This document shows positions 28,891 to 60,906 of a stretch of DNA of 64,000 nucleotides, one piece after another; the stretch's first letter is position 1; every line of letters starts with the position of its first letter. The notes below the pieces were generated by a model that saw only the letters and a program-made list of their open reading frames with translations, ran no database searches and was not told the origin of the DNA. The DNA is from a virus: positions 60,824-124,823 of IMG/VR virus record IMGVR_UViG_3300036857_000619. One strand, 5' to 3'. The position numbers and the translations under genes are program-made.

Positions 28891-29073
28891 ATGGCCACCC
28901 AGCCCCACACCCACTACGTTTGGGCATCCCCCGCCCGCTGGGGATTGCTCATCCTCGCGGTGCTCACGCTGTTGCTCGCCGCCTTTCACGCCAACCCGTT
29001 CGCGCCGACGGTCGATCTGACGGATCTGGGGCTGGCGCTCGGATTCGGCGCGTTCCTGGTTCCCGGTCCCTGA
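28891..29073 (+). CDS. Holin-like two-TM membrane protein (60 aa)
   Basis: GGAGGAG RBS; two hydrophobic segments; heads the lysis cassette. Confidence 0.55.
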   Translation: MATQPHTHYVWASPARWGLLILAVLTLLLAAFHANPFAPTVDLTDLGLALGFGAFLVPGP

Positions 29074-29074
29074 T

Positions 29075-29317
29075 ATGGCGTACGGCTCGTATATCGATCA
29101 TCTCATCTGGAGCTCAATTCTTCCGGATTTAGTACTTAACCCAGAGGCGGCGATTTACGTCTTTTGGAGGCAACTGCGCAACGACCCGGCCACGCCGAAC
29201 CCCGGCCCGCCGATCACCCCGGAGATCGAGACGGAGATCGGCGTCCAGCAGGCGTTTAGCTCGGGGATAGTTCTGGGCTGGAACGAGACCGACGGCGCCT
29301 ACATCGCCAACGGCTAA
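29075..29317 (+). CDS. Small lysis-cassette protein (80 aa), possible cell-wall-binding module
   Basis: AIYVFWRQ...GPPITPEIE...QQAFSSG.VL.W resembles LGFP-type repeats; coupled to GH19. Confidence 0.45.
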   Translation: MAYGSYIDHLIWSSILPDLVLNPEAAIYVFWRQLRNDPATPNPGPPITPEIETEIGVQQAFSSGIVLGWNETDGAYIANG

Positions 29318-29886
29318 TGGTTAGCGCGGCCACCTTCCATCCACCGCAACATGTCGTTCAACCGCCTGCCCCGGAAGGCTGCTGGTCACGCTGGGACGCG
29401 GGCACGATGGCTCGCTGCACGAACTGTCCGCAGCTGGTCATTGAGGCCAACTGGCCAGCGATCTACGCAGAGCTCGAGCGCTGCGGTATCGCCTCCCCTG
29501 AAGTGCAGGCCGGCGCATTGAGCACGATCGCCATCGAGACGGCGCGCACGTTCGCCCCGGTGCGCGAGGCGTACTGGATGAGCGAGGACTGGCGCGCCGA
29601 GAACCTGCGCTACTCCCCCTACTACGGGCGCGGCTACATCCAACTGACCTGGGACTACAACTACCAGAGCTACGGCCAGATCGTCGCCCAGCCACTGCTC
29701 GAGCAACCCGACCTGGCGCTCGAGGAGGCGATTGCCGCCAGCGTCTTCGCCGAGTTCTTCGGTCGCTCGGGCGCCGCGGCGGCGGCGCAGCGCTGCGACT
29801 GGACCGAGTGCCGGCGTCGAGTGCAGGGTGGGTCGGCCGGGCTCGACGAGCTGAAGCACGTGTGTGCCTGCCTGGGCTATCCATGA
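29317..29886 (+). CDS. Glycoside hydrolase family 19 endolysin, 189 aa
   Basis: AIET...VRE catalytic Glu pair and YYGRGYIQLTWDYNY signature. Confidence 0.88.
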   Translation: MVSAATFHPPQHVVQPPAPEGCWSRWDAGTMARCTNCPQLVIEANWPAIYAELERCGIASPEVQAGALSTIAIETARTFAPVREAYWMSEDWRAENLRYSPYYGRGYIQLTWDYNYQSYGQIVAQPLLEQPDLALEEAIAASVFAEFFGRSGAAAAAQRCDWTECRRRVQGGSAGLDELKHVCACLGYP

Positions 29887-30431
29887 CCAGCCCCGTCCTG
29901 TTCAACCCGCACAACTTCGCGATTCCGGTCGACATTCCACTGCCGGAACCGATCACGCCGGTGGCCGGCTGGTACGACTACTTCGATCGCCACCGCGACC
30001 TGTACATGGCCCCCCAGGTGTACGACTGGACCTGCTCCGTGGCGTCCACGACGTGGGTTCTCCAAGCCTCAGGGCTCGACGTCAACGCGGCACGCGAGTC
30101 GGTGGCCTACGCGATCGGTTATCCGCAGTGCGTCAATCCGCAGTACGGGTTAATGGACACCAACTGCGTCGAGCGGGTGTTCCGCAGCTACGGCGTGGAG
30201 TGCCGCACGCTGTGGCCGAACTTCGACCAGATGTACGAGTTGGCCGAACGCACCACGGGCCTGCTTAATTCCACGCGCTGGTACCACTTCGTGGGCATCC
30301 GCGGCGTCTCTGGCAGCTCGATCTGGGTGGCGAATTCGGCCGTCGGCTACAAGGGCATCGGCGAGCTGGTCAGCCGCGGACAGTGGGATGCCTGGGCGAA
30401 CTCATGGAAATGCGTTGTGCTGGAGCCATGA
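29883..30431 (+). CDS. C39-like (papain-fold) cysteine peptidase (182 aa)
   Basis: Q.YDWTCSVAS, WYHFVGIRG, WVANS (Q/C/H/N catalytic set); ATGA overlap at 29883. Confidence 0.7.
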   Translation: MTSPVLFNPHNFAIPVDIPLPEPITPVAGWYDYFDRHRDLYMAPQVYDWTCSVASTTWVLQASGLDVNAARESVAYAIGYPQCVNPQYGLMDTNCVERVFRSYGVECRTLWPNFDQMYELAERTTGLLNSTRWYHFVGIRGVSGSSIWVANSAVGYKGIGELVSRGQWDAWANSWKCVVLEP

Positions 30432-30640
30432 GCGCGGCGAAAGAACAGGTCGCGTTCGGTGAGGCAATCGTTGCCGATCTGGTGCGACTGTTTCCTGACT
30501 ATCCGCCGAATTGCTTCACATCCAACGCTGCGAACGCCCGTCTTGGGGGTCTTTTGACGATCACCATGCCGGACGCTGTTGCGCGAAGACTGATCGACGA
30601 AGCCCTGCGCTCGTGGAAATCCGTTGTGCTGGAGCCATGA
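30401..30640 (+). repeat. 31-bp direct repeat (30401-30431 / 30610-30640)
   Basis: CTCATGGAAATGCGTTGTGCTGGAGCCATGA vs CTCGTGGAAATCCGTTGTGCTGGAGCCATGA, 29/31 identical. Confidence 0.9.
30428..30640 (+). CDS. Small hypothetical protein (70 aa) ending like the peptidase (WKSVVLEP)
   Basis: ATGA overlap; bounded by a 31-bp direct repeat. Confidence 0.45.
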   Translation: MSAAKEQVAFGEAIVADLVRLFPDYPPNCFTSNAANARLGGLLTITMPDAVARRLIDEALRSWKSVVLEP

Positions 30641-30731
30641 ATCGCTTCGTAGCGCCCTGATCATGAGCATTGCGCAACCACGACGAGTGGTGATCCTGGT
30701 CGGCGCCGGCCTGGTCGTGTGAGCTCCGTCT

Positions 30732-30977
30732 GTGGCTGAGTCGCCTCCTGAAAGCGAGTGGCACGAGGATGCGCGCGTGACGGCCACGCGGCTGGTGTGT
30801 CAGATGATCGTGACGCTGACCGTCCTGGTCGCTTCCGTCCTGCTGGTGCTGACGCATCCCGAGTACGCGGCGGGCGTCGCGCTGGTGTGCGGCGTGGTGC
30901 TGGGCAGTTGGTTCACCATGCCGCGTGACCTGCGCGGGGGGCGCGGCCGCCGCCGTCGCCAGGATTCCGAGGACTAG
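30732..30977 (+). CDS. Two-TM holin/antiholin-like protein (81 aa)
   Basis: Two hydrophobic helices and a basic C-terminal tail. Confidence 0.5.
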   Translation: MAESPPESEWHEDARVTATRLVCQMIVTLTVLVASVLLVLTHPEYAAGVALVCGVVLGSWFTMPRDLRGGRGRRRRQDSED

Positions 30978-31703
30978 ATGCTGGCCCTGGCGGTGGGCCT
31001 GGCCATGCTGCTGCACGCCCAGTGCGTCAATCCGCTCGGCACCATCGAGGTGTGTTCGACGCCGACCGAAACGCCCATGCCTGAGCCGACCGAGACGCCA
31101 ACCCTGGAACCGACGCCGACGCCAGAGCCAACCGAGACGCCGACGGTTGCGCCGACCCCCACGCTCGAGCCGACCCAGACACCGGTCCCGCCGCCGGTGG
31201 TAGTTGTGGTGACCGAGACGCCCACGCCGCGGGAGCTCCCTACGCCCAGGCCCACCCCGGACGTACCGACGCCCCCTACGCCCAGGCCCACCCCGGACGT
31301 ACCGACGCCGCAGCCGCGATTCCGCCCGACGCTTCCGCCCGGCCCCGAACGAGCGAGGTCGGCTGCGTGCCTGGCGGCGCCTCCACCCGTGCCTGACCTG
31401 TCGGGAGTTCGGGACGTGAGCTGGACGAACGAGCAGCGCTGTGGCGGCACGCCCGAGGCACTGGCTACCCAGCACGAGCTACCTGCTCTCCGCACGCCAG
31501 CGTCCGCGCCAGATCGCGGCGGCAACGGTGCGCTGGTGGTGGTGGTGATCCTGCCCGCACGCGAGCCGACCGAGACGGCAACCCCTGAGCGCGTGTTGAT
31601 CAATCCGCCCGCTTCAACGGATGAAGCGCCGCCCGAGTGGCCAGAGGTGCCAGTTCAGTTACCTGAAGAGACTGGTGCTGTTGATCGCCAACCAGCCAGG
31701 TGA
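30978..31703 (+). CDS. Exported Pro/Thr-rich protein, 241 aa
   Basis: Hydrophobic N-terminus; EPTETPT and PTPRPTPDVP repeats. Confidence 0.6.
   Translation: MLALAVGLAMLLHAQCVNPLGTIEVCSTPTETPMPEPTETPTLEPTPTPEPTETPTVAPTPTLEPTQTPVPPPVVVVVTETPTPRELPTPRPTPDVPTPPTPRPTPDVPTPQPRFRPTLPPGPERARSAACLAAPPPVPDLSGVRDVSWTNEQRCGGTPEALATQHELPALRTPASAPDRGGNGALVVVVILPAREPTETATPERVLINPPASTDEAPPEWPEVPVQLPEETGAVDRQPAR
31238..31309 (+). repeat. Perfect 36-bp tandem duplication (PTPRPTPDVPTP x2)
   Basis: CCCTACGCCCAGGCCCACCCCGGACGTACCGACGCC twice, in frame. Confidence 0.85.
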
Positions 31704-31853
31704 CCACCACATCCTGTTGTGCGAGGAGTGGCTGAAAGAGCACTCGCCGCCGGCCCGCCACCCACGCGGCCTGGCAAGGTCAACCAGCCGGCCCATGTGG
31801 TGCGGCCGCGTATGGACCCGTGCTAGCGTCGGGCCGAGTTTGGGATTGACGAC

Positions 31854-32435
31854 ATGACCCAGGCGACGAATGACCTGACCGAGCTGGTCAGCCAGGCACA
31901 GTTGGTTCCGCTTTCGAGCCTGCGCCCAGCCGTTTGGAATCCTAGGGTCATTCGATCCGAGCGCATGAAGAACCTGATGCGCTCGATCGAGCGCGACCCG
32001 GACATGCTGCGGCTGCGGCCGGTGCTGGCCAGGCTGAACGGCGAGATCTACGCCGGCAACCAGCGTTACCTGGCCTGCCAGCAGCTCGGCCGCGAGACGA
32101 TCTGGGCGCATCTCGAGGACGTCTCCGAACAGGTCGCCAAGGAGCGCGCGCTGCGCGACAACAACGAGTGGGGCGCCTGGGACGACGACAAGCTGCGCGA
32201 CATGGTCGCCGATCTCAAACAGCTGGGCTCCGACGTCGCGCTGCTCGGTTTTGACGACAAGGAGCTGCAGGCGCTGATGGGCGGCCGCGGCATGCCGGCG
32301 CCGGGCGACGCGGACACCGACGCGACGGAGCATCTGTTCGGGGTGGTGGTCACCTGCAGCGACGAAGCGCAACAGGTCGAGCTGCTCGAGCGGCTGACCG
32401 AAGAGGGCTACGACGTGCGCGCGCTGGTCTCTTGA
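31854..32435 (+). CDS. ParB/Srx N-terminal domain protein, 193 aa
   Basis: LRPAVWNPR...L..SI...P.V.....EIYAGNQRYLA...LG...DN...G.WD..L pattern of phage ParB-N proteins. Confidence 0.85.
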   Translation: MTQATNDLTELVSQAQLVPLSSLRPAVWNPRVIRSERMKNLMRSIERDPDMLRLRPVLARLNGEIYAGNQRYLACQQLGRETIWAHLEDVSEQVAKERALRDNNEWGAWDDDKLRDMVADLKQLGSDVALLGFDDKELQALMGGRGMPAPGDADTDATEHLFGVVVTCSDEAQQVELLERLTEEGYDVRALVS

Positions 32436-32451
32436 TGACGCGAGTATTGGG

Positions 32452-32649
32452 GTGTGTGATTTCTGCGGCGACCCAGGCGACCACAACAAGCCGTACGAGG
32501 TTGGCCGCGAGGACCTGGTGGTGCTGCGACTGGTGCCCGCCGAGTTGCACGCGTTGACGCGGCTGCGCACGCACGTGCGCGACGTGCAGCTGCGCGGCTA
32601 CGACCAGGGCCCCGCCGCGGGCGACGTCCAGGCGGATGCGGAGTCATGA
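32452..32649 (+). CDS. Small hypothetical protein (65 aa)
   Basis: Stop overlaps the ATPase-GNAT start (ATGA); N-terminal CDFC. Confidence 0.45.
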   Translation: MCDFCGDPGDHNKPYEVGREDLVVLRLVPAELHALTRLRTHVRDVQLRGYDQGPAAGDVQADAES

Positions 32650-33896
32650 CCACGACAGCTGGGCCTCTGGTGGCGCACGTCAGGAACGAGGTGGCCGTCA
32701 AAAAGTCCGTACGCACGATGCAGGTTTCGTCAATGTTCGACATCCCGCCGCACGAGCGCAGCACGAGCGAGTGGACCGTGTCTCTGCCCCTGCACGAGCG
32801 GGACTGGGGCGTGGGCCTGATCGTCGGGCCATCAGGGGCAGGCAAGACGAGCGTGGCCCGCGCCCTCTTCCCCGAGCAACTCGTCGCCGAGTTCGCGTGG
32901 CCCGCGGAGCGCAGCATCCTGGACGCGTTCCCGGAGGGCATGTCGATCAAGGACATCACCGGCTCGCTGACCGCCGTCGGCTTCGGCTCGCCGCCGGCCT
33001 GGTTCCGTCCGTACGCCAGCCTGAGCACCGGCGAGCAGTTCCGCGTGACGATCGCCCGTGCGCTGGCCGAAAGCCCGGACCGGGTGGTCATCGACGAGTT
33101 CACCAGCACCGTCGATCGGCAGGTGGCGCAGGTCGCCTCACACGCGATCCAGAAGGCGGTCCGCCGCGCGAAGCGGCAGCTGGTAGCGGTGACGTGCCAC
33201 TACGACGTCGTCGACTGGCTGCAGCCCGACTGGATCTACCAGCCGCACACGGGCGAGTTTGCCTGGAGGTTTCTTCAACGACACCCGCCCCTGGAGCTCC
33301 GTCTCCATTCGGTCCATCACTCCGTCTGGCCGGTGTTTGCACGTCATCACTATCTGAGTTCAGAACTGAACAAGTCCGCGGTGTGCTTCGGCGGCTGGAT
33401 CGGCGACGAGCTGGTGGGTTTCACGTCGTACCTGCATCTGCCGCACTACCGCGTCAAGAACGTGAAGCTCGGCCACCGGCTGGTGGTGCTGCCCGACTAC
33501 CAGGGGCTGGGCATCGGCGGGCGCATGGACGACTGGCTCGGCCAGAAGCTGTACGAGGAGGGGTACCGCTACCACAACGTGGTCTCGCACCCGGCGATGA
33601 TCGCGTACTACTCGGCCTCGCCCCGCTGGCGGCTGTTTCGAGGGGCCGGAGCCAAGTCGTACCCGCTGCACAGCTACGGCTCACTCGAAAAGAACCCGAC
33701 GCTGGTGCGGCGCCACGCGCACCCGCGCAACCTGCAAACCATGGCCTTCGAGTACGTGCCGCCCATTCAAGAGGGGGGGGTAGCTGTATGCCGTTCGGCG
33801 CCGACTGCGAATTTGCGGACTTCGCCGCCTGTGTCAGGCACTTCTCGAGCGGCAAGAACAAGAAGTCCAACCCGCGCGCGTACTGCGCCCAGTTAA
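32646..33896 (+). CDS. ABC-type ATPase fused to a GNAT acyltransferase, 416 aa as assembled
   Basis: Walker A GPSGAGKTS, signature LSTGEQFR, Walker B VVIDEF, H-loop VTCH; GNAT motif A RLVVLPDYQGLGIG; no TM partner. Confidence 0.88.
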   Translation: MTTTAGPLVAHVRNEVAVKKSVRTMQVSSMFDIPPHERSTSEWTVSLPLHERDWGVGLIVGPSGAGKTSVARALFPEQLVAEFAWPAERSILDAFPEGMSIKDITGSLTAVGFGSPPAWFRPYASLSTGEQFRVTIARALAESPDRVVIDEFTSTVDRQVAQVASHAIQKAVRRAKRQLVAVTCHYDVVDWLQPDWIYQPHTGEFAWRFLQRHPPLELRLHSVHHSVWPVFARHHYLSSELNKSAVCFGGWIGDELVGFTSYLHLPHYRVKNVKLGHRLVVLPDYQGLGIGGRMDDWLGQKLYEEGYRYHNVVSHPAMIAYYSASPRWRLFRGAGAKSYPLHSYGSLEKNPTLVRRHAHPRNLQTMAFEYVPPIQEGGVAVCRSAPTANLRTSPPVSGTSRAARTRSPTRARTAPS

Positions 33897-34012
33897 TGAA
33901 GGCGACCGAGGAGCACTGCGCGAAGCAGCGCGCGGCCCAGCACGTGCCCGCCGAGCCGCCGCCGGCCGAAGCGCCCGCGGAGTGGCCCATGCCACCGCGC
34001 GTGGGCCCATGA
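33788..34012 (+). CDS. Small hypothetical protein (74 aa)
   Basis: G-run RBS then ATG 33788; MPFGADCEFADFAACV...YCAQL; stop overlaps the panD start. Confidence 0.55.
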   Translation: MPFGADCEFADFAACVRHFSSGKNKKSNPRAYCAQLMKATEEHCAKQRAAQHVPAEPPPAEAPAEWPMPPRVGP

Positions 34013-34371
34013 AGAACTGGGTTGCCGCCAAGATCCACGGCATCGTGGTGACCGACCGGCACTTCAACTACCACGGCTCGGTCACCATCGCCGAACGACT
34101 GCTGGAAGCCGCGGGCATCGAGCCGTACGAGCAGGTCCACGTGGTGAATCTCGAGAGCGGCGCGCGCTGGGTGACGTACGCGCTGCCAGGCCCGGAGTCC
34201 GTGTTCGAAACCAACGGCGGCGGGGCGCACCTGGCCAAGCCTGGCGATCGGTGCGTGGTCATGACGTACGCCATGACCGAGCGCTTCGAGGGCGCGCGGG
34301 TACTGATGATGCGACTCGAGGGCGAGGCGCTGCTGCCGAACGTCGACTTCGATCTGCTGCGCTATCCGTGA
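34009..34371 (+). CDS. panD: L-aspartate 1-decarboxylase (pyruvoyl-dependent), 120 aa
   Basis: K8-I-H10, Y-H-G23/S24 cleavage site, R53, T56-Y57 and NG..AH align with E. coli PanD K9/H11/G24-S25/R54/T57-Y58/N72. Confidence 0.92.
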   Translation: MKNWVAAKIHGIVVTDRHFNYHGSVTIAERLLEAAGIEPYEQVHVVNLESGARWVTYALPGPESVFETNGGGAHLAKPGDRCVVMTYAMTERFEGARVLMMRLEGEALLPNVDFDLLRYP

Positions 34372-34457
34372 GCGACGAGCAGCTGCGCCTGGTGATGTTC
34401 GCCGCACTGGTTGTCACGTTCCTGGTCATCCTGGTCATGCGCGGGAGCAACTGGTGA
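34368..34457 (+). CDS. Single-TM micropeptide (29 aa)
   Basis: GTGA overlaps at both ends; LVMFAALVVTFLVILVM. Confidence 0.45.
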   Translation: MSDEQLRLVMFAALVVTFLVILVMRGSNW

Positions 34458-34462
34458 GGGCA

Positions 34463-35170
34463 ATGCGCGTTCTGGAACTAGGGAACTATGTTTCTGTCGC
34501 CTACGCGGGCATGCTGCTCGCCGAGCAGGGGTTCGAGGTGACCAAGTGGGTGGCGCCCGAGCCGGCGCGCGATCCGATCCTCGGTCTGGACCACGGCGAC
34601 GAGCTGTGGGCGTGGATCAACGCGGGCAAAACGCTGGTCGCGCGCCGGGCCCACGAGCTCGCGCAGCTGCCGCTGGGCGACGTCGGGATCGTGCTGGATA
34701 ACGTTCGACCGGCCACGCTGGCCAGCTGGGGCATCGAGCCGGCCACGCTGGCGCAACGCTGGGCGGTGGTGTGGGTCAGCCTGCGCAGCGAGGTCGGCGA
34801 GCGCAGCTTCGACGTCGTCGCCCAGGCGCGCAGCTGGATGGAGTACGGACCCTGGCTGCCGATCTACCTGGGCGACACCACCGCCGGGCTGATGATGGCC
34901 TTCAAGGCGCTGGCCAAACTCGCCCGCCACGAGCCCGGCCACTACGTCCTCGGCCAGGCCAGCTGCTTACAGAAACTTGTCGAGGGCGAGCTGGTGGTCG
35001 ATGCGCCGCTGCGCGAGCAGAACACGCGCTGGGACCTCGACGAATACTGGGCCGGGCCCGACGGCGCCCACGTCTGCTACCGCGGCGAGCTGCTGCGCGA
35101 GCCGATTCGCGATCGCGCCTGGAAGCTCGAGCACCTGTACCACGACGGGGCCGGACGGATCCGCCTCTAA
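34463..35170 (+). CDS. CoA-transferase family III (CaiB/BaiF-like), short form (235 aa)
   Basis: RVLELGNYVSVAYAGMLLAEQGFEVTKW, W...NAGK, DIVLDNVRP..L..WGI, VWVSL, LGDTTAG (catalytic Asp position). Confidence 0.85.
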   Translation: MRVLELGNYVSVAYAGMLLAEQGFEVTKWVAPEPARDPILGLDHGDELWAWINAGKTLVARRAHELAQLPLGDVGIVLDNVRPATLASWGIEPATLAQRWAVVWVSLRSEVGERSFDVVAQARSWMEYGPWLPIYLGDTTAGLMMAFKALAKLARHEPGHYVLGQASCLQKLVEGELVVDAPLREQNTRWDLDEYWAGPDGAHVCYRGELLREPIRDRAWKLEHLYHDGAGRIRL

Positions 35171-36153
35171 CCGCTGCCGAAGAGGTTTGAGATCGCTTTC
35201 GCGCAGAAGTGGACGATGCCGTCCAGTTGGCCGTCGGAGAGATAGTCGAGCATGGCGTAGCTGAAGAAGCCCAGCAGCAGGACCGTCGCATACCTGGCCG
35301 CCGTCCGGACGCTCATCGCGTCCCCAAGTACCGTGCGCGTGGCGCGGACCGTGAAGCACCCGCCCAGATCGGGCGACCACTGCAGCCGGCTGCGCAATTC
35401 CAGCCGCTCCTCGTCCTTCGCGATCCAGTGTTCGTTAAACTCAAGGATCTCGCTGCTGCGTTCCATGGCCACCCGCGTGCACTGCGCGACCTCGTCCGGG
35501 CGCGCCTGGCTGCTCGGCGGTTCGCCAGGGTGGAGCATCGTCTCGTAGTAAGAGCCCACCAGCTCCGTGCGGGTGTACTTGAGCGCGGTGCAGGCCGCGT
35601 CATTGGCGGCGAGGATCAACCCGCCGCCGCCGCCGGTGCCGGTCTTGATGACGATCACCAGCATCTCGTCGGCACTCGCGATGAGCGGGGCATCGCGCGG
35701 AGTCAAGCGGAAGCGCAGGCGGCCAGGGCTGTCGCGCACCACGTCCACGCGCGCCTGCTGTTGCGAACCATCGCCGCGGAACAGGTTCGTCTCCCAGGAA
35801 GCGTCGTCGCGGAGTCCCCGCTCCAGCGGGCCCAGCAGGTGACGCTCGAGGGGACCGGTGTCGGGCGCCGGCCCGATCCGGTGGGCCAGGGCCAGGGCCA
35901 GCGTGCGGTTGACCAGCTGCGTGTCGTCGGCGTAGCCGAAGGTTTGCAGGAAGTTGTCGAAGACCTCGACGATGATGCGCTGCGGCCCTTCGGTGATGAG
36001 TTCGCCGAAGCGCTTGCCAGGATCGAGCAACAGGTCGAGCTGCTCGCGGGTCTCGTCAATCAGTTTCAGGCACGCTTGGAGCTCACCGTCGGTGAATCCG
36101 TCGCGCGCGGAGTCCTCTCCGCGCTGGGATTGTGGCGTAGGTGTCACTGTCAC
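35167..36153 (-). CDS. Hypothetical protein with C-terminal membrane anchor, 328 aa
   Basis: Long ORF convergent on the modification operon; hydrophobic YATVLLLGFFSYAML; family not recognised. Confidence 0.65.
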   Translation of the reverse strand: MTVTPTPQSQRGEDSARDGFTDGELQACLKLIDETREQLDLLLDPGKRFGELITEGPQRIIVEVFDNFLQTFGYADDTQLVNRTLALALAHRIGPAPDTGPLERHLLGPLERGLRDDASWETNLFRGDGSQQQARVDVVRDSPGRLRFRLTPRDAPLIASADEMLVIVIKTGTGGGGGLILAANDAACTALKYTRTELVGSYYETMLHPGEPPSSQARPDEVAQCTRVAMERSSEILEFNEHWIAKDEERLELRSRLQWSPDLGGCFTVRATRTVLGDAMSVRTAARYATVLLLGFFSYAMLDYLSDGQLDGIVHFCAKAISNLFGSG

Positions 36154-36378
36154 CTGAGTGCATGCAGCCTCCCCTCAAGTGCGGAGTACCAACTCACACG
36201 GTACATGCCTCCAGAGTTGGCAATTCCCTAACCCCTGCTCAGACCATACCATCGGGGTTGGCACGCAATCACGCGATACTGGCAGGAGGTGGTGACGCAC
36301 TCGTGAGACACTCAGCCGCAGAACGCTTGCGCAGTCGGATGCCAGGCCACGGCACTGGGACGCTAGGCTGATGAGTGC

Positions 36379-36816
36379 GTGGACGCCGGCGGCGGCAGGA
36401 CCGACCTCTATGGGCTCCTTCGCCGTGAACTCACCGAACGCGGCTGGACGCGCCGGCGCTTCGCCCGCGAGCTGGGGCTGCGCGAGTCGACCGTCGGCCG
36501 CTGGTTGTCGACCAATCCGCACGCGCGGGTGGTGCCCCGTCCGGCCACGATCGCGCGCATCGCGCGCGTGCTGGATTTCACGCCCGCGGAGCTGCTGAGC
36601 GCAGCCGGCTACCTGGACCCACCAGCAACGTTGGCCTTCCAACCCGAAGAGCCCCTGGCCGACGAATTCCGCGCTCGGGCGCGGCGCTTCCGCAGGGTGC
36701 TGCGCATGGTTCCAAGCCACCAGCAGGGACTGGCGCTCCAGATCATCGACGTCATGCTGGACGCGCTGCAGGCGTTCGTGAACCGGCTTGACGACGAGGA
36801 GGACGACGCCGAGTAG
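36379..36816 (+). CDS. XRE-family HTH regulator, 145 aa
   Basis: LRRELTERGWTRRRFARELGLRESTVGRWL...P....IARIARVLD.TPAELL.AAGYL. Confidence 0.82.
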   Translation: MDAGGGRTDLYGLLRRELTERGWTRRRFARELGLRESTVGRWLSTNPHARVVPRPATIARIARVLDFTPAELLSAAGYLDPPATLAFQPEEPLADEFRARARRFRRVLRMVPSHQQGLALQIIDVMLDALQAFVNRLDDEEDDAE

Positions 36817-36921
36817 CGCAGGCACGCGTCACCGCGGACGCACACGTGCATTTTTCAGATGTGCCCGCGCCGGCCCCGCGCGTGCGGCCATCAACTGCCT
36901 CACGGCACACTCGGCCAGAGC

Positions 36922-37572
36922 ATGGCGGCCAACACCCGCACCCCGCTGCAACGCGAGAAAGACTTCGCCCGCACCGAGGAGCTGCACCTGCGGGGGTACA
37001 CCGCACCCGAGATCGCCAGCGAAATGGGCGTCTCGCCCGAGCAGATTCGCCAGGACCTGAAAAAGATCGCCCAGCAGTACGCCCAGAGCACGCTGCGCAA
37101 CTACGACGTCGATCTGAACCAGCAATTGCGAAAGCTCGACCTGCTCGAGCGCTCGGCGTGGCGCTTCCTGGGCCAATCCGAACAGGATCGCGAGATCACC
37201 GTGCGGCGGCAACGCAGCCGCTCGGGCGAGGACGGCGAAACGACCGTACGCGAGGCCAGCACGCGCACCGAGCAGCGCGACCCCGACAGCCGCTACATGA
37301 CCGTCATTCAGTGGTGCATCGCCGAACGCAACCGCCTGCTGGGGCTGTACCCGGCCGACGAGGCGAAGCCGCAGACGCACGTGAATGTGACGGAGATCGT
37401 ATACGAGCTCGCGCCGCAGAAGCCGGCGCAGGGCATGACGATCATCGGCGCCAGCTCGCAGGCGTCGCTGGTCAACGGCCAGGTCGAGGCGCTCAGCCCT
37501 CCAGCGCAGGAGATCGAGCGCGTCGATCCCAACGAACTGTGGGGTGTCGAGCCCGAGTCCGTCGAGGACTGA
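36922..37572 (+). CDS. Terminase small subunit (216 aa)
   Basis: HTH (LRGYTAPEIASEMGVSPEQIRQDL), coiled coil, ..IAERNRLLGLY; directly upstream of TerL. Confidence 0.7.
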   Translation: MAANTRTPLQREKDFARTEELHLRGYTAPEIASEMGVSPEQIRQDLKKIAQQYAQSTLRNYDVDLNQQLRKLDLLERSAWRFLGQSEQDREITVRRQRSRSGEDGETTVREASTRTEQRDPDSRYMTVIQWCIAERNRLLGLYPADEAKPQTHVNVTEIVYELAPQKPAQGMTIIGASSQASLVNGQVEALSPPAQEIERVDPNELWGVEPESVED

Positions 37573-37578
37573 GGCCGC

Positions 37579-40044
37579 ATGGTCATTTCGGCGAGCCAGC
37601 GCCGGCAGATCGAGCGCACCGCGGCCAACCTGGGAGCCGAACTGCTGAACGGCCCTCCCCTTGCGCCGACGCCACCGCCCAGGCAACTGCTGCCAGCGCC
37701 GCGAGTACCGCGCGGCGGCGCGCGGCAGGAAGGCCCGTGGATGCTCGAACGGAGCCCGGACGGCAGCGCACGCGTGCGCGCCAATCTGCACCCCGGCCAG
37801 AGCGCGGCGATGGCCAGCCGCGCCCGCACGATCGCCATGATCGCCGGGTCGCAGAGCGGCAAGACCTCGAGCGGGCCGCTGTGGCTGGAGCGCGAGATCC
37901 GCCTGCAGGGGCCGGGCGACTACCTGGCCGTGACGGCGACCTTCCCACTGCTGAAGCGCAAGATGCTGCCGGAGTTCCTGCGGTTGTTCCAGGGCACGCT
38001 CAATCTGGGCACGTGGATGGCCGCGGACAAGATGTTCGTCTTCCACGACAACCAGACCCGCGTGCTCTTTGGATCGGCGACCAATCCCGAGTCGCTCGAG
38101 TCGGCGACGGCCAAAGCCGCCTGGCTCGACGAGGCCGGCCAGGCGCAGTTTCGGCTCGAGTCGTACGAGGCCATCGACCGCCGCCTGGCGCTGTACGAAG
38201 GACGTCGGTTCATTTCGACGACGCCGTACAACCAGGGGCCTCTTTTCACCACCGTCTACAAGCCCGCGGTCGACGGCGACCCGGACATCTGCGTCATCCA
38301 GTTCGCGTCCTCGCTGAACCCGTCGTTTCCGATCGAGGAGATGGAGCGCCAGCGCGACAAACTGCCGCTCTGGAAGTACCGCATGTTCTTCGAGGGCCGC
38401 TTCGACAAGCCGCCGGGCCTGATCTACTCGGACTACGAGGACAGCTACCGCGAGCAGGGCGGGCACCTGATCAAGGCGCGCACGATGCCCATCCCGGCGT
38501 GGTGGCCGCGCTACATCGGCCTGGACTTCGGCGGCGTGCACCTGGCGCGCATCTTCATCGCCCAGGACCCGCTGACCAACACGTTCTACGTGTACGACGA
38601 GCAGCTCTCGGGCGGGCGGACCGCCTCGCAGCACGCCCAGGACATCCTCCAGCAGCTGGGTGGCGCGCCGCTGTACCGCTCGTGGGGCGGCGCCAAGAGC
38701 GAGGACAGCTGGCGGCTGGAGTTCACCGCGGCCGGGCTGGTGGTCGAACCGCCGCCGGTCTCCGACGTGGAGGTCGGCATCGACCGCGCGATCGAGCTGT
38801 TCAAGGCTCGAAGGCTGTTCGTCTTCGACACGTGCGTGGGCTTGCGCTCGGAGCTGGGCACGTACTCGCGCAAGGCCGGCCCGGACGGCGAGCCGCTCGA
38901 GGACATCCAGGACAAGGCCGCCTATCACCGCTGCGTGACGGCCGGAACGCTCATCGAGACCCGCTCCGGACTACGACCGATCGAGCAGATCAGACCGGGC
39001 GAGCTGGTGCGGACGCGTCAGGGGTTCCGACGTGTGCTGGACAGTGCGCTGACGGAGCGACAGGCCAAGGTCCTGACACTCGAGCTGAGTGATGGCCGGA
39101 AATTGACAGCGACGCCTGAGCATCCCATCTGGGTGCGCAAGCGTGGTTGGGTAAGAATGGACGCACTGCGATACGCTATGGCGGTCGAATGCAGCCCTTC
39201 ACGCCCCCAGCCCGCGAATACAAGTCCGAGGTGGTCGTCTTCCAGGGCATCACCTACCGGCGCTACCCGGAAGCGGAAGATGAGCATCGCCGCAACTACT
39301 TCCACGCCAGTGAAAACACCGGCGGCCGCCCGCGGTATCTCCACATCGCCATCTGGCAAGACGCGACCGGACAGAAGCTCCCTAAAGGCTGGGTGGTTCA
39401 TCACGACGACCACAACCCACTCAACAACGACCCCTCGAATCTCAAACCGATGTCGCAAGCCGAGCACAACCAGCACCACTTCCGCGGGCCGGGGGCAAGT
39501 CCCGCGAGGCTGGCGCATCTGGAGCGAGTTCGTGCGCAGGCCGTGGAGTGGCACAGCTCAGAGGCTGGTCTGGCGTGGCACGCCAAACATGCTCGAGAAG
39601 CTTGGGCGAAGCGTCAGACAGCCAAGCGCAGCTGTGAGCAGTGCGGCACGAGCTTCGAGTCGATCACGCGGCGCGCGAGCGATCGCTTCTGTTGCAACTC
39701 GTGCAAGTCGAGTTGGCGGCGGGCCAGCGGCGTCGACAACGAGACGCGCACGTGTGCCTGGTGCGGACAATCCTTCGAGACGAACCGGTACTCACGCATT
39801 CGCCATTGCTCGCGCAGTTGTTCGAGCAAGGCCAGGATGTCTGGTCGTCCGAGTAGTCCGCGAGACCGAGCCACGGGACGTTTTCAATCTGACGGTTGAA
39901 GGCGAGCACGAATACTTCGCGAACGGCATCCTCGTCTCGAACTGCGACGCGCTCCGGTATCTGTGCTCGGGCTTGAGCGGGCCGCAGCAGCCGCTGCCGG
40001 TGCTGGCCATGGGCCGCGCGCGGGGCTGGCAACCGCGCTATTGA
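37579..40044 (+). CDS. terL: Terminase large subunit with intein (821 aa precursor, 484 aa spliced)
   Basis: Walker A AGSQSGKT, Walker B WLDEAGQ, motif III FISTTP, nuclease IGLDFG; YHR|C-DALRY is reconstituted after splicing. Confidence 0.92.
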   Translation: MVISASQRRQIERTAANLGAELLNGPPLAPTPPPRQLLPAPRVPRGGARQEGPWMLERSPDGSARVRANLHPGQSAAMASRARTIAMIAGSQSGKTSSGPLWLEREIRLQGPGDYLAVTATFPLLKRKMLPEFLRLFQGTLNLGTWMAADKMFVFHDNQTRVLFGSATNPESLESATAKAAWLDEAGQAQFRLESYEAIDRRLALYEGRRFISTTPYNQGPLFTTVYKPAVDGDPDICVIQFASSLNPSFPIEEMERQRDKLPLWKYRMFFEGRFDKPPGLIYSDYEDSYREQGGHLIKARTMPIPAWWPRYIGLDFGGVHLARIFIAQDPLTNTFYVYDEQLSGGRTASQHAQDILQQLGGAPLYRSWGGAKSEDSWRLEFTAAGLVVEPPPVSDVEVGIDRAIELFKARRLFVFDTCVGLRSELGTYSRKAGPDGEPLEDIQDKAAYHRCVTAGTLIETRSGLRPIEQIRPGELVRTRQGFRRVLDSALTERQAKVLTLELSDGRKLTATPEHPIWVRKRGWVRMDALRYAMAVECSPSRPQPANTSPRWSSSRASPTGATRKRKMSIAATTSTPVKTPAAARGISTSPSGKTRPDRSSLKAGWFITTTTTHSTTTPRISNRCRKPSTTSTTSAGRGQVPRGWRIWSEFVRRPWSGTAQRLVWRGTPNMLEKLGRSVRQPSAAVSSAARASSRSRGARAIASVATRASRVGGGPAASTTRRARVPGADNPSRRTGTHAFAIARAVVRARPGCLVVRVVRETEPRDVFNLTVEGEHEYFANGILVSNCDALRYLCSGLSGPQQPLPVLAMGRARGWQPRY
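38932..39942 (+). mobile_element. Intein (337 aa, precursor residues 452-788)
   Basis: Block A CVTAGTLI, block B TATPEHPIW, block F DVFNLTV..EHEYFANG, terminal Ser-Asn, +1 Cys. Confidence 0.92.
39189..39899 (+). CDS. HNH homing endonuclease with C-terminal zinc fingers (236 aa), nested out of frame in the intein
   Basis: LH..IW...G..LPKGWVVHHDDHNPLNNDPSNL..MS..EH; CEQC..RFCCNSC and CAWC..HCSRSC; -1 frame relative to TerL. Confidence 0.88.
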   Translation: MQPFTPPAREYKSEVVVFQGITYRRYPEAEDEHRRNYFHASENTGGRPRYLHIAIWQDATGQKLPKGWVVHHDDHNPLNNDPSNLKPMSQAEHNQHHFRGPGASPARLAHLERVRAQAVEWHSSEAGLAWHAKHAREAWAKRQTAKRSCEQCGTSFESITRRASDRFCCNSCKSSWRRASGVDNETRTCAWCGQSFETNRYSRIRHCSRSCSSKARMSGRPSSPRDRATGRFQSDG

Positions 40045-40194
40045 GCACGAACTCCCGCACTTTTGCGTGCTACAGTGAGCCGCACTGCAGCTTTGGCTCA
40101 GGGGTCGGCAACGGCCGCGGGGTCCAAGGGTGTGGTGGGGTGTTCGAGGGGCATTCGGCGCAATCCGGGTGCCCCTCGACGTGTGTTCAGCGGT

Positions 40195-40395
40195 TTAGTT
40201 GGCCTCCAGCAGCGGCATCGTCGCCTCGCAGCGCGTGCAGACCAGCAGACGGCGCTCGATCTCCTCGGGAGTCGCCTGCCAGCGGTGCATGCCGTAGCGC
40301 TCGCAGTCCCAGTGGCAGTGGCAATCGCAGCCGTCGGGCTGACGGATGTTGTGGCTGCACGCCGCGCACAGCACGTCGTAGCGCCTGATCTCCAT
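40195..40395 (-). CDS. Cys-rich small protein (66 aa)
   Basis: CAAC, CDCHCHWDC, CTRC. Confidence 0.45.
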   Translation of the reverse strand: MEIRRYDVLCAACSHNIRQPDGCDCHCHWDCERYGMHRWQATPEEIERRLLVCTRCEATMPLLEAN

Positions 40396-40397
40396 GG

Positions 40398-40700
40398 CTA
40401 CGGCATCGGCCGCCAGGGCCCGACGCGCCAGGACTCGATCTGGCTCAGACTGACCGGCTGCTCGTGGTGCTCCCAGCTGCAATACTGGCACTCGCGCCAC
40501 AGGATCCAGCCCAGCCGCTTCCATCTCGGATTGGACTGAGCCTGGATGCCGCCGTCGTCGAAGTCCTCGCGGTAGGCCATGACGGCTGGGACGTCCTTGC
40601 CCTGCCGGCCGCAGCGTGGGCACACGAGCGGGCGCGATCCCGTGGCCTGCCACCACTGCCCGTCAGTCTGCGGCGAGCCATGCATCGTCGTGCTTTGCAT
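40398..40700 (-). CDS. Zinc-ribbon protein (100 aa)
   Basis: CPRCG...WRECQYC. Confidence 0.55.
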   Translation of the reverse strand: MQSTTMHGSPQTDGQWWQATGSRPLVCPRCGRQGKDVPAVMAYREDFDDGGIQAQSNPRWKRLGWILWRECQYCSWEHHEQPVSLSQIESWRVGPWRPMP

Positions 40701-40790
40701 CCCAGAATGCTAGCGTTTCGGCGGCCTGTATCGGGTCTGTAATGCCAAGCGGCCCGGACCGGGCAGCACTGACCGGCAGACTGACAGGAC

Positions 40791-41210
40791 ATGACACCCA
40801 CCCCACCCGAGACTGCCGAGATCGGCGAATGGGTCAGCGTCAAGGACGCGGCCGCGCGCCTGCACATCACCGAGCGGTCGGTCTTCCGCCGGCTGGAGAA
40901 GGGCGTGCTCAAAAAGCGCGCCAACCCGGACGGCAGCATCATGGTCCTGCTGACAGGTCAGGACGCCGTCATCGCCGAGGACATGACCGAGTCTGAGCCC
41001 GCATCTCAGCCAGGACCCGAGCCGCAGGTGGCTCTGGCGCTCGGCGTCATGCACAGCCTGCAGACGTTCGGGCTAACCCGCGAGCGCGAGCTGGCCGAAC
41101 GCGACGAGCGCATCGCCTCGATGGCCGAGGAGATCGGCCGTTTGAGGGAGCAGCTGGCGTGGCTGCGGCGGCCGTTGTGGAAGCGGCTGACCGGCCAGCT
41201 GCCGTCATGA
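40791..41210 (+). CDS. MerR/excisionase-like HTH plus coiled-coil protein, 139 aa
   Basis: WVSVKDAAARLHITERSVFRRLEKG; C-terminal ELAERDERIASMAEEIGRLREQL...RRPLWKRL. Confidence 0.75.
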   Translation: MTPTPPETAEIGEWVSVKDAAARLHITERSVFRRLEKGVLKKRANPDGSIMVLLTGQDAVIAEDMTESEPASQPGPEPQVALALGVMHSLQTFGLTRERELAERDERIASMAEEIGRLREQLAWLRRPLWKRLTGQLPS

Positions 41211-56074: not shown

Positions 56075-56268
56075 TGACCGGCAAGCACTTCGCGGCGCTG
56101 CTCGAGATAGCCGAGTGCGCCGAGCAGCTGGTGGACGCCTGGCAGCGCGAGGACAGTGATTGGCACACCGCCGCCGGGTGGCTGACCGAGGCGGTCGACG
56201 AGTACCGCAACATACGCTCTAACCATTCCAACGTGCTAGAATTCCCCGGTGCAGCAGAAGCTCTTTGA
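56071..56268 (+). CDS. Hypothetical protein (65 aa)
   Basis: Coupled ORF. Confidence 0.45.
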   Translation: MMTGKHFAALLEIAECAEQLVDAWQREDSDWHTAAGWLTEAVDEYRNIRSNHSNVLEFPGAAEAL

Positions 56269-56740
56269 CGACGTGCCGGAGCGAGAGCGCGGGGCGGCCA
56301 ACTCCGCGCTCTCGGCGTCCATTCCGGCGCTCACGCTGACCCAGCCATGGGCGTCGTTGGTGGCCATCGGCGCCAAGCGCATCGAGACCCGCTCGTGGGG
56401 TACGCGCTACCGCGGCCCGATCGCGATCCACGCCGCCAAGCGCATGTCGTTCGAGGACGAGATGCAGTGCTTCTTCGAGCCGTTCAACAAGACGCTTCGC
56501 ACCCGCGACATCCTGTCGGCGCGCGATCTGCCGCTGGGCGCGGTGCTGGCGATCGGCCGGCTGGTGGACTGCCAGAAGGTGGGCGAAGGTGCGCAGCGAC
56601 CGGCGCAGAATTCGCTGGAGTTCGCGTTCGGCGACTTCAGCTGGGGCCGCTGGCTCTGGTATCTGGACGACGTCGAAGAGCTCGACGAGCCGCTGCCCGC
56701 GCGCGGGGCGCTCGGCTTGTGGGAGTGGCGGCCGGACTGA
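56249..56740 (+). CDS. ASCH domain protein, 163 aa
   Basis: ALTLTQPWASLVAIGAKRIETRSW.T.YRGPIAIHAAK ... RGALGLW. Confidence 0.9.
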   Translation: MQQKLFDDVPERERGAANSALSASIPALTLTQPWASLVAIGAKRIETRSWGTRYRGPIAIHAAKRMSFEDEMQCFFEPFNKTLRTRDILSARDLPLGAVLAIGRLVDCQKVGEGAQRPAQNSLEFAFGDFSWGRWLWYLDDVEELDEPLPARGALGLWEWRPD

Positions 56741-60555: not shown

Positions 60556-60906
60556 GTGGGCGACAGCGACGGGCATCAAGCGCGCAATGAGGAGACGGTG
60601 CGCCGCTTGAGCGAGTACCTGTCTCAGCAGCCGCGCGTGACGTCGGCGACGCGACGCGAGGTGCGTCTGCTGACGGGCGTCGACCCGGTCAGCGAGCTGG
60701 GCATTCCCGAGGCCGACGAGTCCGAGCTCGACGCAACCGCGATCGTGCTGGTGGTGCGCGTGCCGGCGCCGCACGCCGTCGGCGCGAAGATGGAGCGCTG
60801 CGCGGTCTGCAACCGTCGCGTGTGGGTGGCGCGCAGCACGCCGCCGGGCCCCAAGCGCGTATGCGTGGTGTGCTTCATGGACGCGCGGATGGGCTCGACC
60901 GATTGA
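60556..60906 (+). CDS. Zinc-finger hypothetical protein (116 aa)
   Basis: RCAVCNRRVW...CVVC. Confidence 0.5.
   Translation: MGDSDGHQARNEETVRRLSEYLSQQPRVTSATRREVRLLTGVDPVSELGIPEADESELDATAIVLVVRVPAPHAVGAKMERCAVCNRRVWVARSTPPGPKRVCVVCFMDARMGSTD

Follow-up and report, generated by a model that had tools for sequence, protein, structure and literature searches.

The window analysed here is a stretch of 64,000 nt (positions 60,824 to 124,823 of IMG/VR record IMGVR_UViG_3300036857_000619) that makes up the second half of a complete phage genome of 124.8 kb with direct terminal repeats and a G+C content of about 68%. The same genome was found again in several soil metagenomes. Between positions 31854 and 35170 the window encodes a ParB-like protein, an ABC-type ATPase fused to a GNAT acyltransferase domain (hereafter ABC-GNAT), a PanD-type aspartate decarboxylase and a short relative of the family III coenzyme A (CoA) transferases (hereafter mini CoA-transferase), together with three small open reading frames (ORFs). 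The locus had originally been predicted, from the sequence alone, to be a seven-gene acylation system of new composition. On comparison with other loci it is better described as a conserved core of ParB and ABC-GNAT plus an inserted cassette of two enzymes, and conservation does not extend to the small ORFs. The claim of novelty likewise holds only for the composite with PanD and the mini CoA-transferase, since the core itself belongs to a huge family. The composite is a new element on a known, uncharacterised core; no paper characterising or describing the combination of ParB, ABC-GNAT, PanD and CoA-transferase was found in the literature.

The virion genes that are read leftward (portal, major head, tail fibre) extend as far as position 28748. 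A rightward block starts at 28.9 kb, with an endolysin gene as its first member and the intein-bearing terminase large subunit (TerL) gene as its last, so that the position between lysis genes and terminase assigned to the locus by the original prediction was borne out. The four stop/start overlaps described there are all present in the sequence (ATGA at 32646-32649, ATGA at 34009-34012, GTGA at 34368-34371 and GTGA at 34454-34457), and hmmscan recovered every domain that had been named, i.e. ParB_N, ABC_tran with Acetyltransf_1, Asp_decarbox and CoA_transf_3. The seven genes are real, but the stop of the ABC-GNAT ORF had been placed at 34012 and lies at 33896 (Table 1). A megablast search of the phage collection with positions 29000-41000 of the window gave zero matches.

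Table 1. Genes of the locus and its surroundings, with related genes at other loci. Positions are those of the window unless preceded by a locus number (L).
Feature	Position	Strand	Remarks
Endolysin	29317-29886	+	rightward block
ParB/Srx-like partner protein, 193 aa	31854..32435	+	PF02195, phrog_620
Small protein, 65 aa (s65)	32452..32649	+	GC3 0.88-0.89; homolog in L150
ABC-ATPase fused to GNAT, 416-aa ORF	32646..33896	+	ABC_tran + Acetyltransf_1; phrog_11143
Small four-Cys protein, 74 aa (s74)	33788..34012	+	GC3 0.89; ribosome-binding site; homolog in L150
Predicted PanD-type pyruvoyl-dependent aspartate 1-decarboxylase, 120 aa	34009..34371	+	PF02261
Possible hydrophobic peptide, 29 aa (tm29), doubtful, lineage-specific	34368..34457	+	GC3 0.90; overlaps both sides
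Putative minimal family III CoA-transferase, 238 aa	34454..35170	+	PF02515
328-aa gene	35167-36153	-	weak PAS_9 match
TerS-like gene	36859-37572		separate gene, kept in this phage and relatives
Terminase large subunit with intein, 821 aa	37579..40044	+	phrog_2, 1e-31
ASCH-domain protein	56249..56740	+	PF04266, 21.8 bits; rightward early block, 21 kb from module
ABC-GNAT::TerL fusion ORFs	L147:445-2979; L148:1194-3743		
Formyltransferase-like gene of phiE255 gp30	L064:4607-5221		directly 3' of ABC-GNAT
Chromosomal three-gene set (decarboxylase, mini CoA-transferase, dehydrogenase)	L041, L043, L046-L048, L050, L052-L054		actinobacterial chromosomes
GC3, G+C content at third codon positions.

The ABC-GNAT protein consists of an ABC-type ATPase (residues 1-214) followed by a complete GNAT fold (residues 216-373), and it matches phrog_11143 at 1e-98 over residues 13-353. 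The ATPase motifs that are invariant across the family alignments (Walker A GPSGxGK, signature LSxGE, Walker B DEF, the D-loop and the CH of the H-loop) are present in the window protein as GPSGAGKT, LSTGEQ, VVIDEF, STVD and CH. The acyl-CoA motif A of the GNAT domain, QGxGxG, is also invariant in the family and reads Q286-G-L-G-I-G here; the domain scores 28.9 bits on PF00583. When an AlphaFold2 model (predicted local distance difference test, pLDDT, 87) was compared by VIA, residues 1-214 matched transporter nucleotide-binding domains (NBDs) with Z 15, and residues 216-373 matched RimI, Naa50 and IAA acetyltransferase with Z 13-14. Searches with the whole model in Foldseek and in the ESM Atlas returned generic ABC proteins or unnamed clusters only. 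Two ABC-GNAT homologs (P0241 and P0243) are split by HNH or LAGLIDADG intein-type inserts. Eukaryotic homologs of 730-1060 aa (P0245, P0250 and Atlas clusters) come from the dinoflagellate Durusdinium, an MMETSP transcriptome and a Chlorophyta cluster, and one of the eukaryotic proteins has a weak N-terminal SAP DNA-binding motif.

The homology of ABC-GNAT stops near position 33788, and the proteins of its closest relatives are 380 aa long. The last 36 codons of the window ORF are low in GC3 and overlap the s74 gene out of frame. By these features the tail past about 33788 appears to be an unselected extension over the next gene, perhaps a by-product of the joining of the downstream genes. A run of eight G lies at 33771-33780, just 5' of the ATG at 33788, and coincides with the end of the ABC-GNAT homology; it also serves as a ribosome-binding site. 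The s74 gene itself thus has, besides its high GC3, a purine-rich Shine-Dalgarno stretch with a G-run, GAGGGGGGGG, upstream. Its product gave no match in the phage collection, and it has a 59% identical homolog in L150. Since that locus lacks PanD and CoA-transferase, s74 is not specific to the cassette. L150 also has a counterpart of s65 in the corresponding place (75% identity); no recognisable homolog was found in L149 or other loci, and no family was matched in Pfam, PHROGs and NCBIfam-type scans. Homologs of s65 and s74 were thus found only in L150, the closest relative, and in none of the cassette-bearing loci outside the window, and a counterpart of tm29 was found in no related locus compared.

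The ParB-like protein is the only ParB in the whole phage genome. It has an N-terminal ParB_N domain (PF02195, 25.9-26.3 bits, i.e. at the cut-off of 26.3) and then a conserved C-terminal mini-domain of about 35 aa; family scans of the protein reported neither a helix-turn-helix nor a ParB C-terminal family. Matches were obtained to phrog_620 (5e-23), to phrog_498, a ParB-methyltransferase (5e-23), and to PADLOC MTase_II (5e-13); on TIGR00180 it reached 19 bits against a cut-off of 58. Judging from these matches, its closest likeness is to the ParB moiety of proteins in which ParB is fused to a phage DNA methyltransferase. A role in plasmid partition was set aside because the neighbouring ATPase is of the ABC type, not the ParA type, and a GNAT domain is present. 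Phage thymine dioxygenases require a ParB-like partner without a DNA-binding domain (PNAS 2026, PMC13229309), and ParB-acetyltransferase fusions exist (PMC12704722). A complex prediction for ABC-GNAT and ParB, run without controls, gave a score of 0.04, which weighs neither for nor against a complex.

ABC-GNAT proteins are numerous, with at least 4352 cluster representatives (E 1e-10 or better) and occurrences in more than 448 stretches of viral contigs. The core was surveyed in a sample of 82 loci (79 of the best viral loci and 3 annotated phages). A ParB homolog lies directly 5' of ABC-GNAT in at least 59 of these, and in 43 the protein cluster containing the annotated TerL of phage P335 is encoded one to four genes downstream. 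The census of downstream genes was restricted to the TerL cluster and to the formyltransferase and ASCH genes, which had been confirmed independently, as many of the greedy longest-ORF calls were spurious in high-GC loci. With a full-length match, ParB upstream and terminase downstream, ParB and ABC-GNAT of the window are ordinary members of the phrog_11143 module. PanD and the mini CoA-transferase are present in only four of the sampled loci.

The link between ABC-GNAT and packaging is supported by gene position and by fusions to TerL. The latter are continuous ORFs of 844-849 aa that combine full phrog_11143 with full phrog_38, and four distinct proteins of this kind were found (P0242, P0244, P0246, P0247). 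The fusions belong to one lineage of phages, with a Mu-type portal whose gene follows the fusion ORF; at L147 and L148 the ORF is preceded closely by an ASCH gene. Both lines of evidence strengthen the association with packaging that had been proposed originally; the DNA target and the anti-restriction purpose proposed along with it stay conjectural. The TerL fusions, and about six sampled loci in which TerL follows ABC-GNAT with no gene between, could also mean that ParB and ABC-GNAT act as a non-canonical DNA-recognition or small-terminase-like packaging factor in which the GNAT domain is structural or regulatory (CoA sensing). We give this explanation a slim chance, the smallest of those considered here. 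Neither the acyl-CoA motif nor the GNAT fold as a whole varies within the family, a separate TerS-like gene is kept in the window phage and its relatives, and linkage to CoA-transferase, formyltransferase and ASCH genes speaks for a chemical role.

The first enzyme of the cassette matches PF02261 with 98.9 bits (cut-off 25). On the equivalog TIGR00223 it scores 65.4 bits, below the cut-off of 106, and was for this reason filed as a divergent PanD-type protein and not as the housekeeping equivalog. In an alignment to PanD of M. tuberculosis (2c45), Lys9, His11, Tyr22, the Gly24-Ser25 cleavage site, Arg54, Thr57, Tyr58 and Asn72 are all kept; Arg54 of PanD binds the distal carboxylate of free aspartate. 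The protein is predicted to make beta-alanine from aspartate. The original remark that no other pantothenate genes are present was confirmed for PanC, which is absent from the entire 124.8-kb genome, in a search that covered PanC and not PanB. With PanC missing, the cassette does not serve to make pantothenate. A PanZ-like role of the GNAT domain in activating PanD was set aside, since ABC-GNAT mostly occurs without PanD. Achromobacter phage 2-1 carries PanD alone, as an apparent metabolic gene.

The second enzyme matches PF02515 (CoA_transf_3) with 41.6 bits (cut-off 23.3) over profile positions 4-186 of 366. Its family comprises at least 285 cluster representatives, all of about 225-270 aa. 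Loci that encode such proteins were recovered by alignment-based scans, while a single-sequence query gave none. The residues G140-D141-T142 are invariant in 38 of 38 aligned members, and D141 aligns with the catalytic Asp169 of CaiB, in an alignment that is weak if taken alone (E 0.06). In CaiB and formyl-CoA transferase (FRC), Asp169 forms an acyl-aspartyl anhydride. A Foldseek search with the AlphaFold2 model (pLDDT 93) gave matches down to 4e-9 to Rv3272, FRC and CaiB, with a TM-score of about 0.6 normalised to the query. The model consists of the large domain and a novel C-terminal beta domain of about 70 aa. The 238-aa protein is therefore best regarded, on sequence and model, as a putative minimal variant of the family III CoA-transferases and not as a typical member, and it is predicted to act on an omega-amino acid, beta-alanine.

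Evidence on the substrate also comes from bacteria. Nine actinobacterial chromosomal loci contain the mini CoA-transferase without ParB or ABC-GNAT. At these loci the gene upstream, which overlaps that of the mini CoA-transferase, encodes a pyridoxal phosphate (PLP)-dependent decarboxylase scoring 347-363 bits, just under the glutamate decarboxylase equivalog cut-off of 380. The gene that follows is aminobutyraldehyde-dehydrogenase-like, with scores on NF010000 of up to 622 bits. The same mini CoA-transferase is thus paired with decarboxylases of two unrelated folds, PanD in phage and the PLP enzyme in chromosomes. Since both chromosomal neighbours yield omega-amino acids, these loci provide independent context evidence that the mini CoA-transferase activates an omega-amino acid. 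The predicted substrate would be beta-alanine in phage and probably gamma-aminobutyrate (GABA) in the chromosomes, where the three-gene set may form an omega-aminoacyl-CoA branch of a secondary-metabolite pathway. Some of the sets adjoin SARP-type regulators, an adenylation enzyme or an IDO-like gene.

A second survey, seeded with the mini CoA-transferase, yielded 38 viral and 23 genomic loci. In each of the 36 viral loci whose upstream sequence was long enough, the mini CoA-transferase comes directly after ABC-GNAT, and PanD lies between the two in 29 non-redundant loci. This co-occurrence in viral loci is far beyond chance, and answers in the affirmative the question, raised with the original prediction, of whether the genes would be found together in other phages. 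The hosts implied by the genomic cassette loci are Actinomycetota, Planctomycetota, Alphaproteobacteria and Acidobacteriota. The same four genes are also present in a cultured phage, Jace of Rhodococcus (gp85-88, 48-55% identity). A single Gemmataceae metagenome-assembled genome (MAG; L042, L044, L045, L059, L062, L063) has at least 4-6 contigs with the PanD and mini CoA-transferase cassette, which represent either many related prophages or phage contigs binned with the MAG. Exact contigs of 151-248 nt were found in a soil metatranscriptome library at 34145-34392 and 34804-34954, inside the PanD and CoA-transferase genes. They may reflect transcription in nature, but DNA carry-over is possible and they are not counted as evidence of expression.

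Further genes accompany the core in other phages. A formyltransferase-like gene (PF00551) occupies the slot of the cassette in Burkholderia phage phiE255 (gp30), Pseudomonas phage Komp_PAO1_1 and ten Gordonia phages. Of the 15 phage records with this gene, 14 have it immediately behind ABC-GNAT, and three unrelated phage groups are represented. An alternative accessory of this type is to be expected if the core is a transferase whose tailoring or donor genes can be exchanged. An ASCH gene is found within 1.5 kb downstream of ABC-GNAT, mostly in convergent orientation, in 25 of 130 informative loci. The more distant ASCH protein of the window matches a hidden Markov model of the ASCH genes found next to ABC-GNAT modules elsewhere (E 1e-29) and is a candidate reader or eraser of an acyl mark. 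One of the ASCH proteins, YqfB, is an N4-acylcytosine amidohydrolase (PMC6972931), and a preprint reports ASCH proteins as erasers of N4-acetylcytidine (ac4C) in tRNA (bioRxiv 10.64898/2026.02.27.708502).

Taken together, the type of ParB, the position next to terminase, the TerL fusions and the formyltransferase and ASCH genes favour N-acylation of a nucleobase amine. The best explanation, which we hold tentatively and at somewhat less than even chances, is that the core acylates a base of the phage DNA around packaging and that the accessory cassette supplies beta-alanyl-CoA. The integrity of the genes, their folds and catalytic residues, the synteny, the gain and loss of the cassette and the linkage to terminase are observed; the enzymatic activities, the donor, the target and the biological purpose are what we infer. 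ParB and ABC-GNAT would act as an ATP-driven, acyl-CoA-dependent N-acyltransferase on phage nucleic acid, most probably at an exocyclic amine on one of the DNA bases, cytosine N4 being the leading candidate. PanD would convert L-aspartate to beta-alanine, and the mini CoA-transferase would move CoA from a common acyl-CoA onto beta-alanine to give beta-alanyl-CoA. The GNAT domain, the sole acyl-CoA user in the gene cluster, could then take beta-alanyl-CoA as donor instead of, or beside, acetyl-CoA. In place of an acetyl group, such a donor would leave a 3-aminopropanoyl mark, which is cationic and adds 71 Da. The distant ASCH gene might read or remove it, and the mark might shield packaged DNA from host nucleases or neutralise charge.

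The route from aspartate through beta-alanine and beta-alanyl-CoA to GNAT transfer has comparative support, and the supply of the donor is its best-supported part. A route of this kind had been put forward originally, and it gains from the conserved PanD residues, D141, the synteny and the pairing seen in chromosomes, although its activities are still deduced. A fuller version is rather doubtful as a whole. In it, N-(3-aminopropanoyl) groups would be placed on a DNA base (most likely cytosine N4) at packaging under guidance by ParB and from a private beta-alanyl-CoA pathway; sister phages would have acetyl or formyl versions, and ASCH proteins would be readers or erasers.

Several findings weigh against acylation of DNA with a beta-alanyl donor, and the first of them concern distribution. 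The two closest ABC-GNAT relatives (82% and 77% identical) are without PanD and CoA-transferase. They have the portal, ParB, the TerS-like gene and TerL in common with the window, and one of them, L150, also has the 65-aa and 74-aa genes. The CoA-transferase occurs without PanD in seven loci. In a tree of 110 ABC-GNAT sequences at least nine changes (gains or losses) are needed to explain the presence of the cassette. The absence from the closest relatives and the number of changes imply that the GNAT domain is not dependent on beta-alanyl-CoA, and that the cassette could serve another end. From these comparisons, positions 34009-35170 appear to be a mobile accessory cassette that is kept only beside ABC-GNAT, and ABC-GNAT does well without it.

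A cassette that is dispensable and has been gained and lost repeatedly might be an auxiliary metabolic one, unrelated to the GNAT substrate and lodged at a permissive insertion site, where it might boost the beta-alanine or CoA pool or detoxify or re-route acyl-CoA in infection; or the GNAT domain might acylate a small molecule, e.g. a polyamine. The presence of PanD alone in other phages, such as Achromobacter phage 2-1, and of the mini CoA-transferase in non-phage chromosomal contexts fits such a role. We nevertheless regard it as decidedly unlikely. In the 36 informative viral loci, which belong to phages of four host phyla or classes, the CoA-transferase is directly behind ABC-GNAT and nowhere else, PanC is absent from the genome, and a CoA-transferase consumes CoA pools and does not make them.

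The second group of unfavourable findings concerns the enzymes. The mini CoA-transferase is without the small domain of the classical two-domain chains of about 360-430 aa; since this domain completes the active site of the interlocked dimer in solved family III enzymes, it is not certain that the short protein transfers CoA. In structure, the GNAT domain comes nearest to N-acetyltransferases that act on proteins and small molecules. The parallel with Mom of phage Mu that was drawn originally did not extend to family membership: the GNAT domain gave no match to PF25680, on which Mu Mom itself scores 253 bits, and hhalign against Mu Mom gave a probability below 1%, which is not significant.

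The best structural matches, RimI and Naa50, are protein N-alpha-acetyltransferases, and GNATs overwhelmingly act on proteins and small molecules. ABC-GNAT might thus acylate a protein (TerS, TerL, portal or a host DNA-bound protein), with PanD and CoA-transferase again giving a beta-alanyl donor, and fusion to TerL would suit a motor-protein substrate as well as DNA. This is unlikely in our estimate, as the recurrent ASCH partner and a ParB type common to DNA methyltransferases point to nucleic acid, and ordinary protein acetylation needs no soluble ATP-dependent ABC dimer.

A third group concerns the mark itself. To our knowledge, acyl-CoA-dependent acylation of DNA bases has never been demonstrated. 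The ASCH erasers characterised so far act on free nucleosides and tRNA, not on DNA. The target might also be RNA, with ATP-driven N4-acylation of cytidine in host or phage tRNA, as by TmcA and NAT10, and ASCH proteins as the erasers. TmcA and NAT10 are indeed ATPase-GNAT fusions that make ac4C, the preprint on ASCH proteins cited above concerns tRNA, and in Jace the module is followed, after about 3.6 kb, by a tRNA cluster. Acylation of tRNA is quite unlikely, however. The ATPase is a transporter-type ABC protein and not the RecD-like helicase of TmcA, a tRNA-binding domain is absent (Pfam, structure search), and an enzyme acting on tRNA would hardly be expected to partner with ParB, to be encoded next to terminase and to occur fused to TerL. 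Acylation of a DNA base is the reading that we prefer.

Compared with the phrog_11143 module of ParB and ABC-GNAT known from other phages, the composite in the window differs by its dedicated donor pathway, which only a minority of loci have. The clade E thymine dioxygenases of the 5mYOX family (PMC13229309) and the ParB-methyltransferase fusions likewise have a short ParB-like protein, with no obvious DNA-binding domain, beside a DNA-modifying enzyme, often near terminase. The enzyme in the window is instead an acyl-CoA N-acyltransferase by its domains, with an ABC ATPase of its own, and a dependence on ParB like that of the dioxygenases is here a prediction. In phage thymidine hypermodification, amino acids are appended to 5-hydroxymethyldeoxyuridine (5-hmdU) and then tailored (Lee et al. 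2018, as cited in PMC13229309). Common to both would be the idea of cationic, amino-acid-derived groups on DNA and of a core transferase with interchangeable tailoring enzymes. None of the hydroxymethylase, kinase or aGPT-Pplase genes was seen here, however, and a CoA thioester would be the source of the group in an N-acylation.

Mom of phage Mu is another phage enzyme of the GNAT fold that is thought to modify DNA late in infection. Its product is N6-carbamoylmethyl-adenine. In the Mu-like phage phiE255 the ABC-GNAT gene follows the tail-fibre genes, which is the position of mom in Mu. Mom works without an ATPase, ParB or CoA-transferase, whereas the module in the window has all three. TmcA/NAT10 and the ASCH amidohydrolases (YqfB) share the same logic, in which a GNAT coupled to an NTPase acylates the amine of a nucleobase and ASCH proteins are the hydrolases or readers. 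TmcA/NAT10 combine a RecD-like helicase, GNAT and a tRNA-binding domain, whereas the window protein has an ABC NBD, GNAT, no further domain and a packaging context, so that the likeness is one of analogy only. CaiB, FRC and Rv3272 have the large-domain fold and the catalytic Asp in common with the mini CoA-transferase, but the small domain is theirs only. The PanD of pantothenate synthesis has the same catalytic residues and Gly-Ser self-cleavage site; the window PanD falls below the equivalog cut-off, in a genome without PanC.

Some neighbouring genes also vary between related phages. The 328-aa gene on the opposite strand converges on the CoA-transferase gene with a stop overlap of 4 nt and fills the slot held by ASCH genes at other loci; its counterpart in L150 is 219 aa long and 29% identical. 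The extein parts of the window TerL are 84% identical to the intein-less TerL of L150 (482 aa). The intein of the window TerL sits in the nuclease half, and the TerL of L149 (791 aa) also has an intein-type insert with Hint/Intein_splicing matches.

ParB with ABC-GNAT is among the commonest unexplained gene pairs that head phage packaging operons, with thousands of clusters in phages from Firmicutes to Planctomycetota and homologs in algae. With the donor cassette, the possible chemistry narrows to that of an omega-aminoacyl-CoA, and the mass shift to be expected is +71.04 Da, as against +42.01 for acetyl. Because the composite is present in the cultured phage Jace, this is testable now. If the DNA target is false, a very large family would be redirected to protein or RNA targets. 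If the preferred reading is true, a minimal omega-amino acid CoA-transferase would be defined, which is in use in actinobacterial chromosomes too. N-acylation would join the chemistries of DNA modification, the ASCH genes of phages would be explained, and tools for the labelling of DNA would follow. In the fuller and more doubtful version, the module would be the first acyl-CoA-dependent system for the acylation of DNA bases and a new family of DNA hypermodification.

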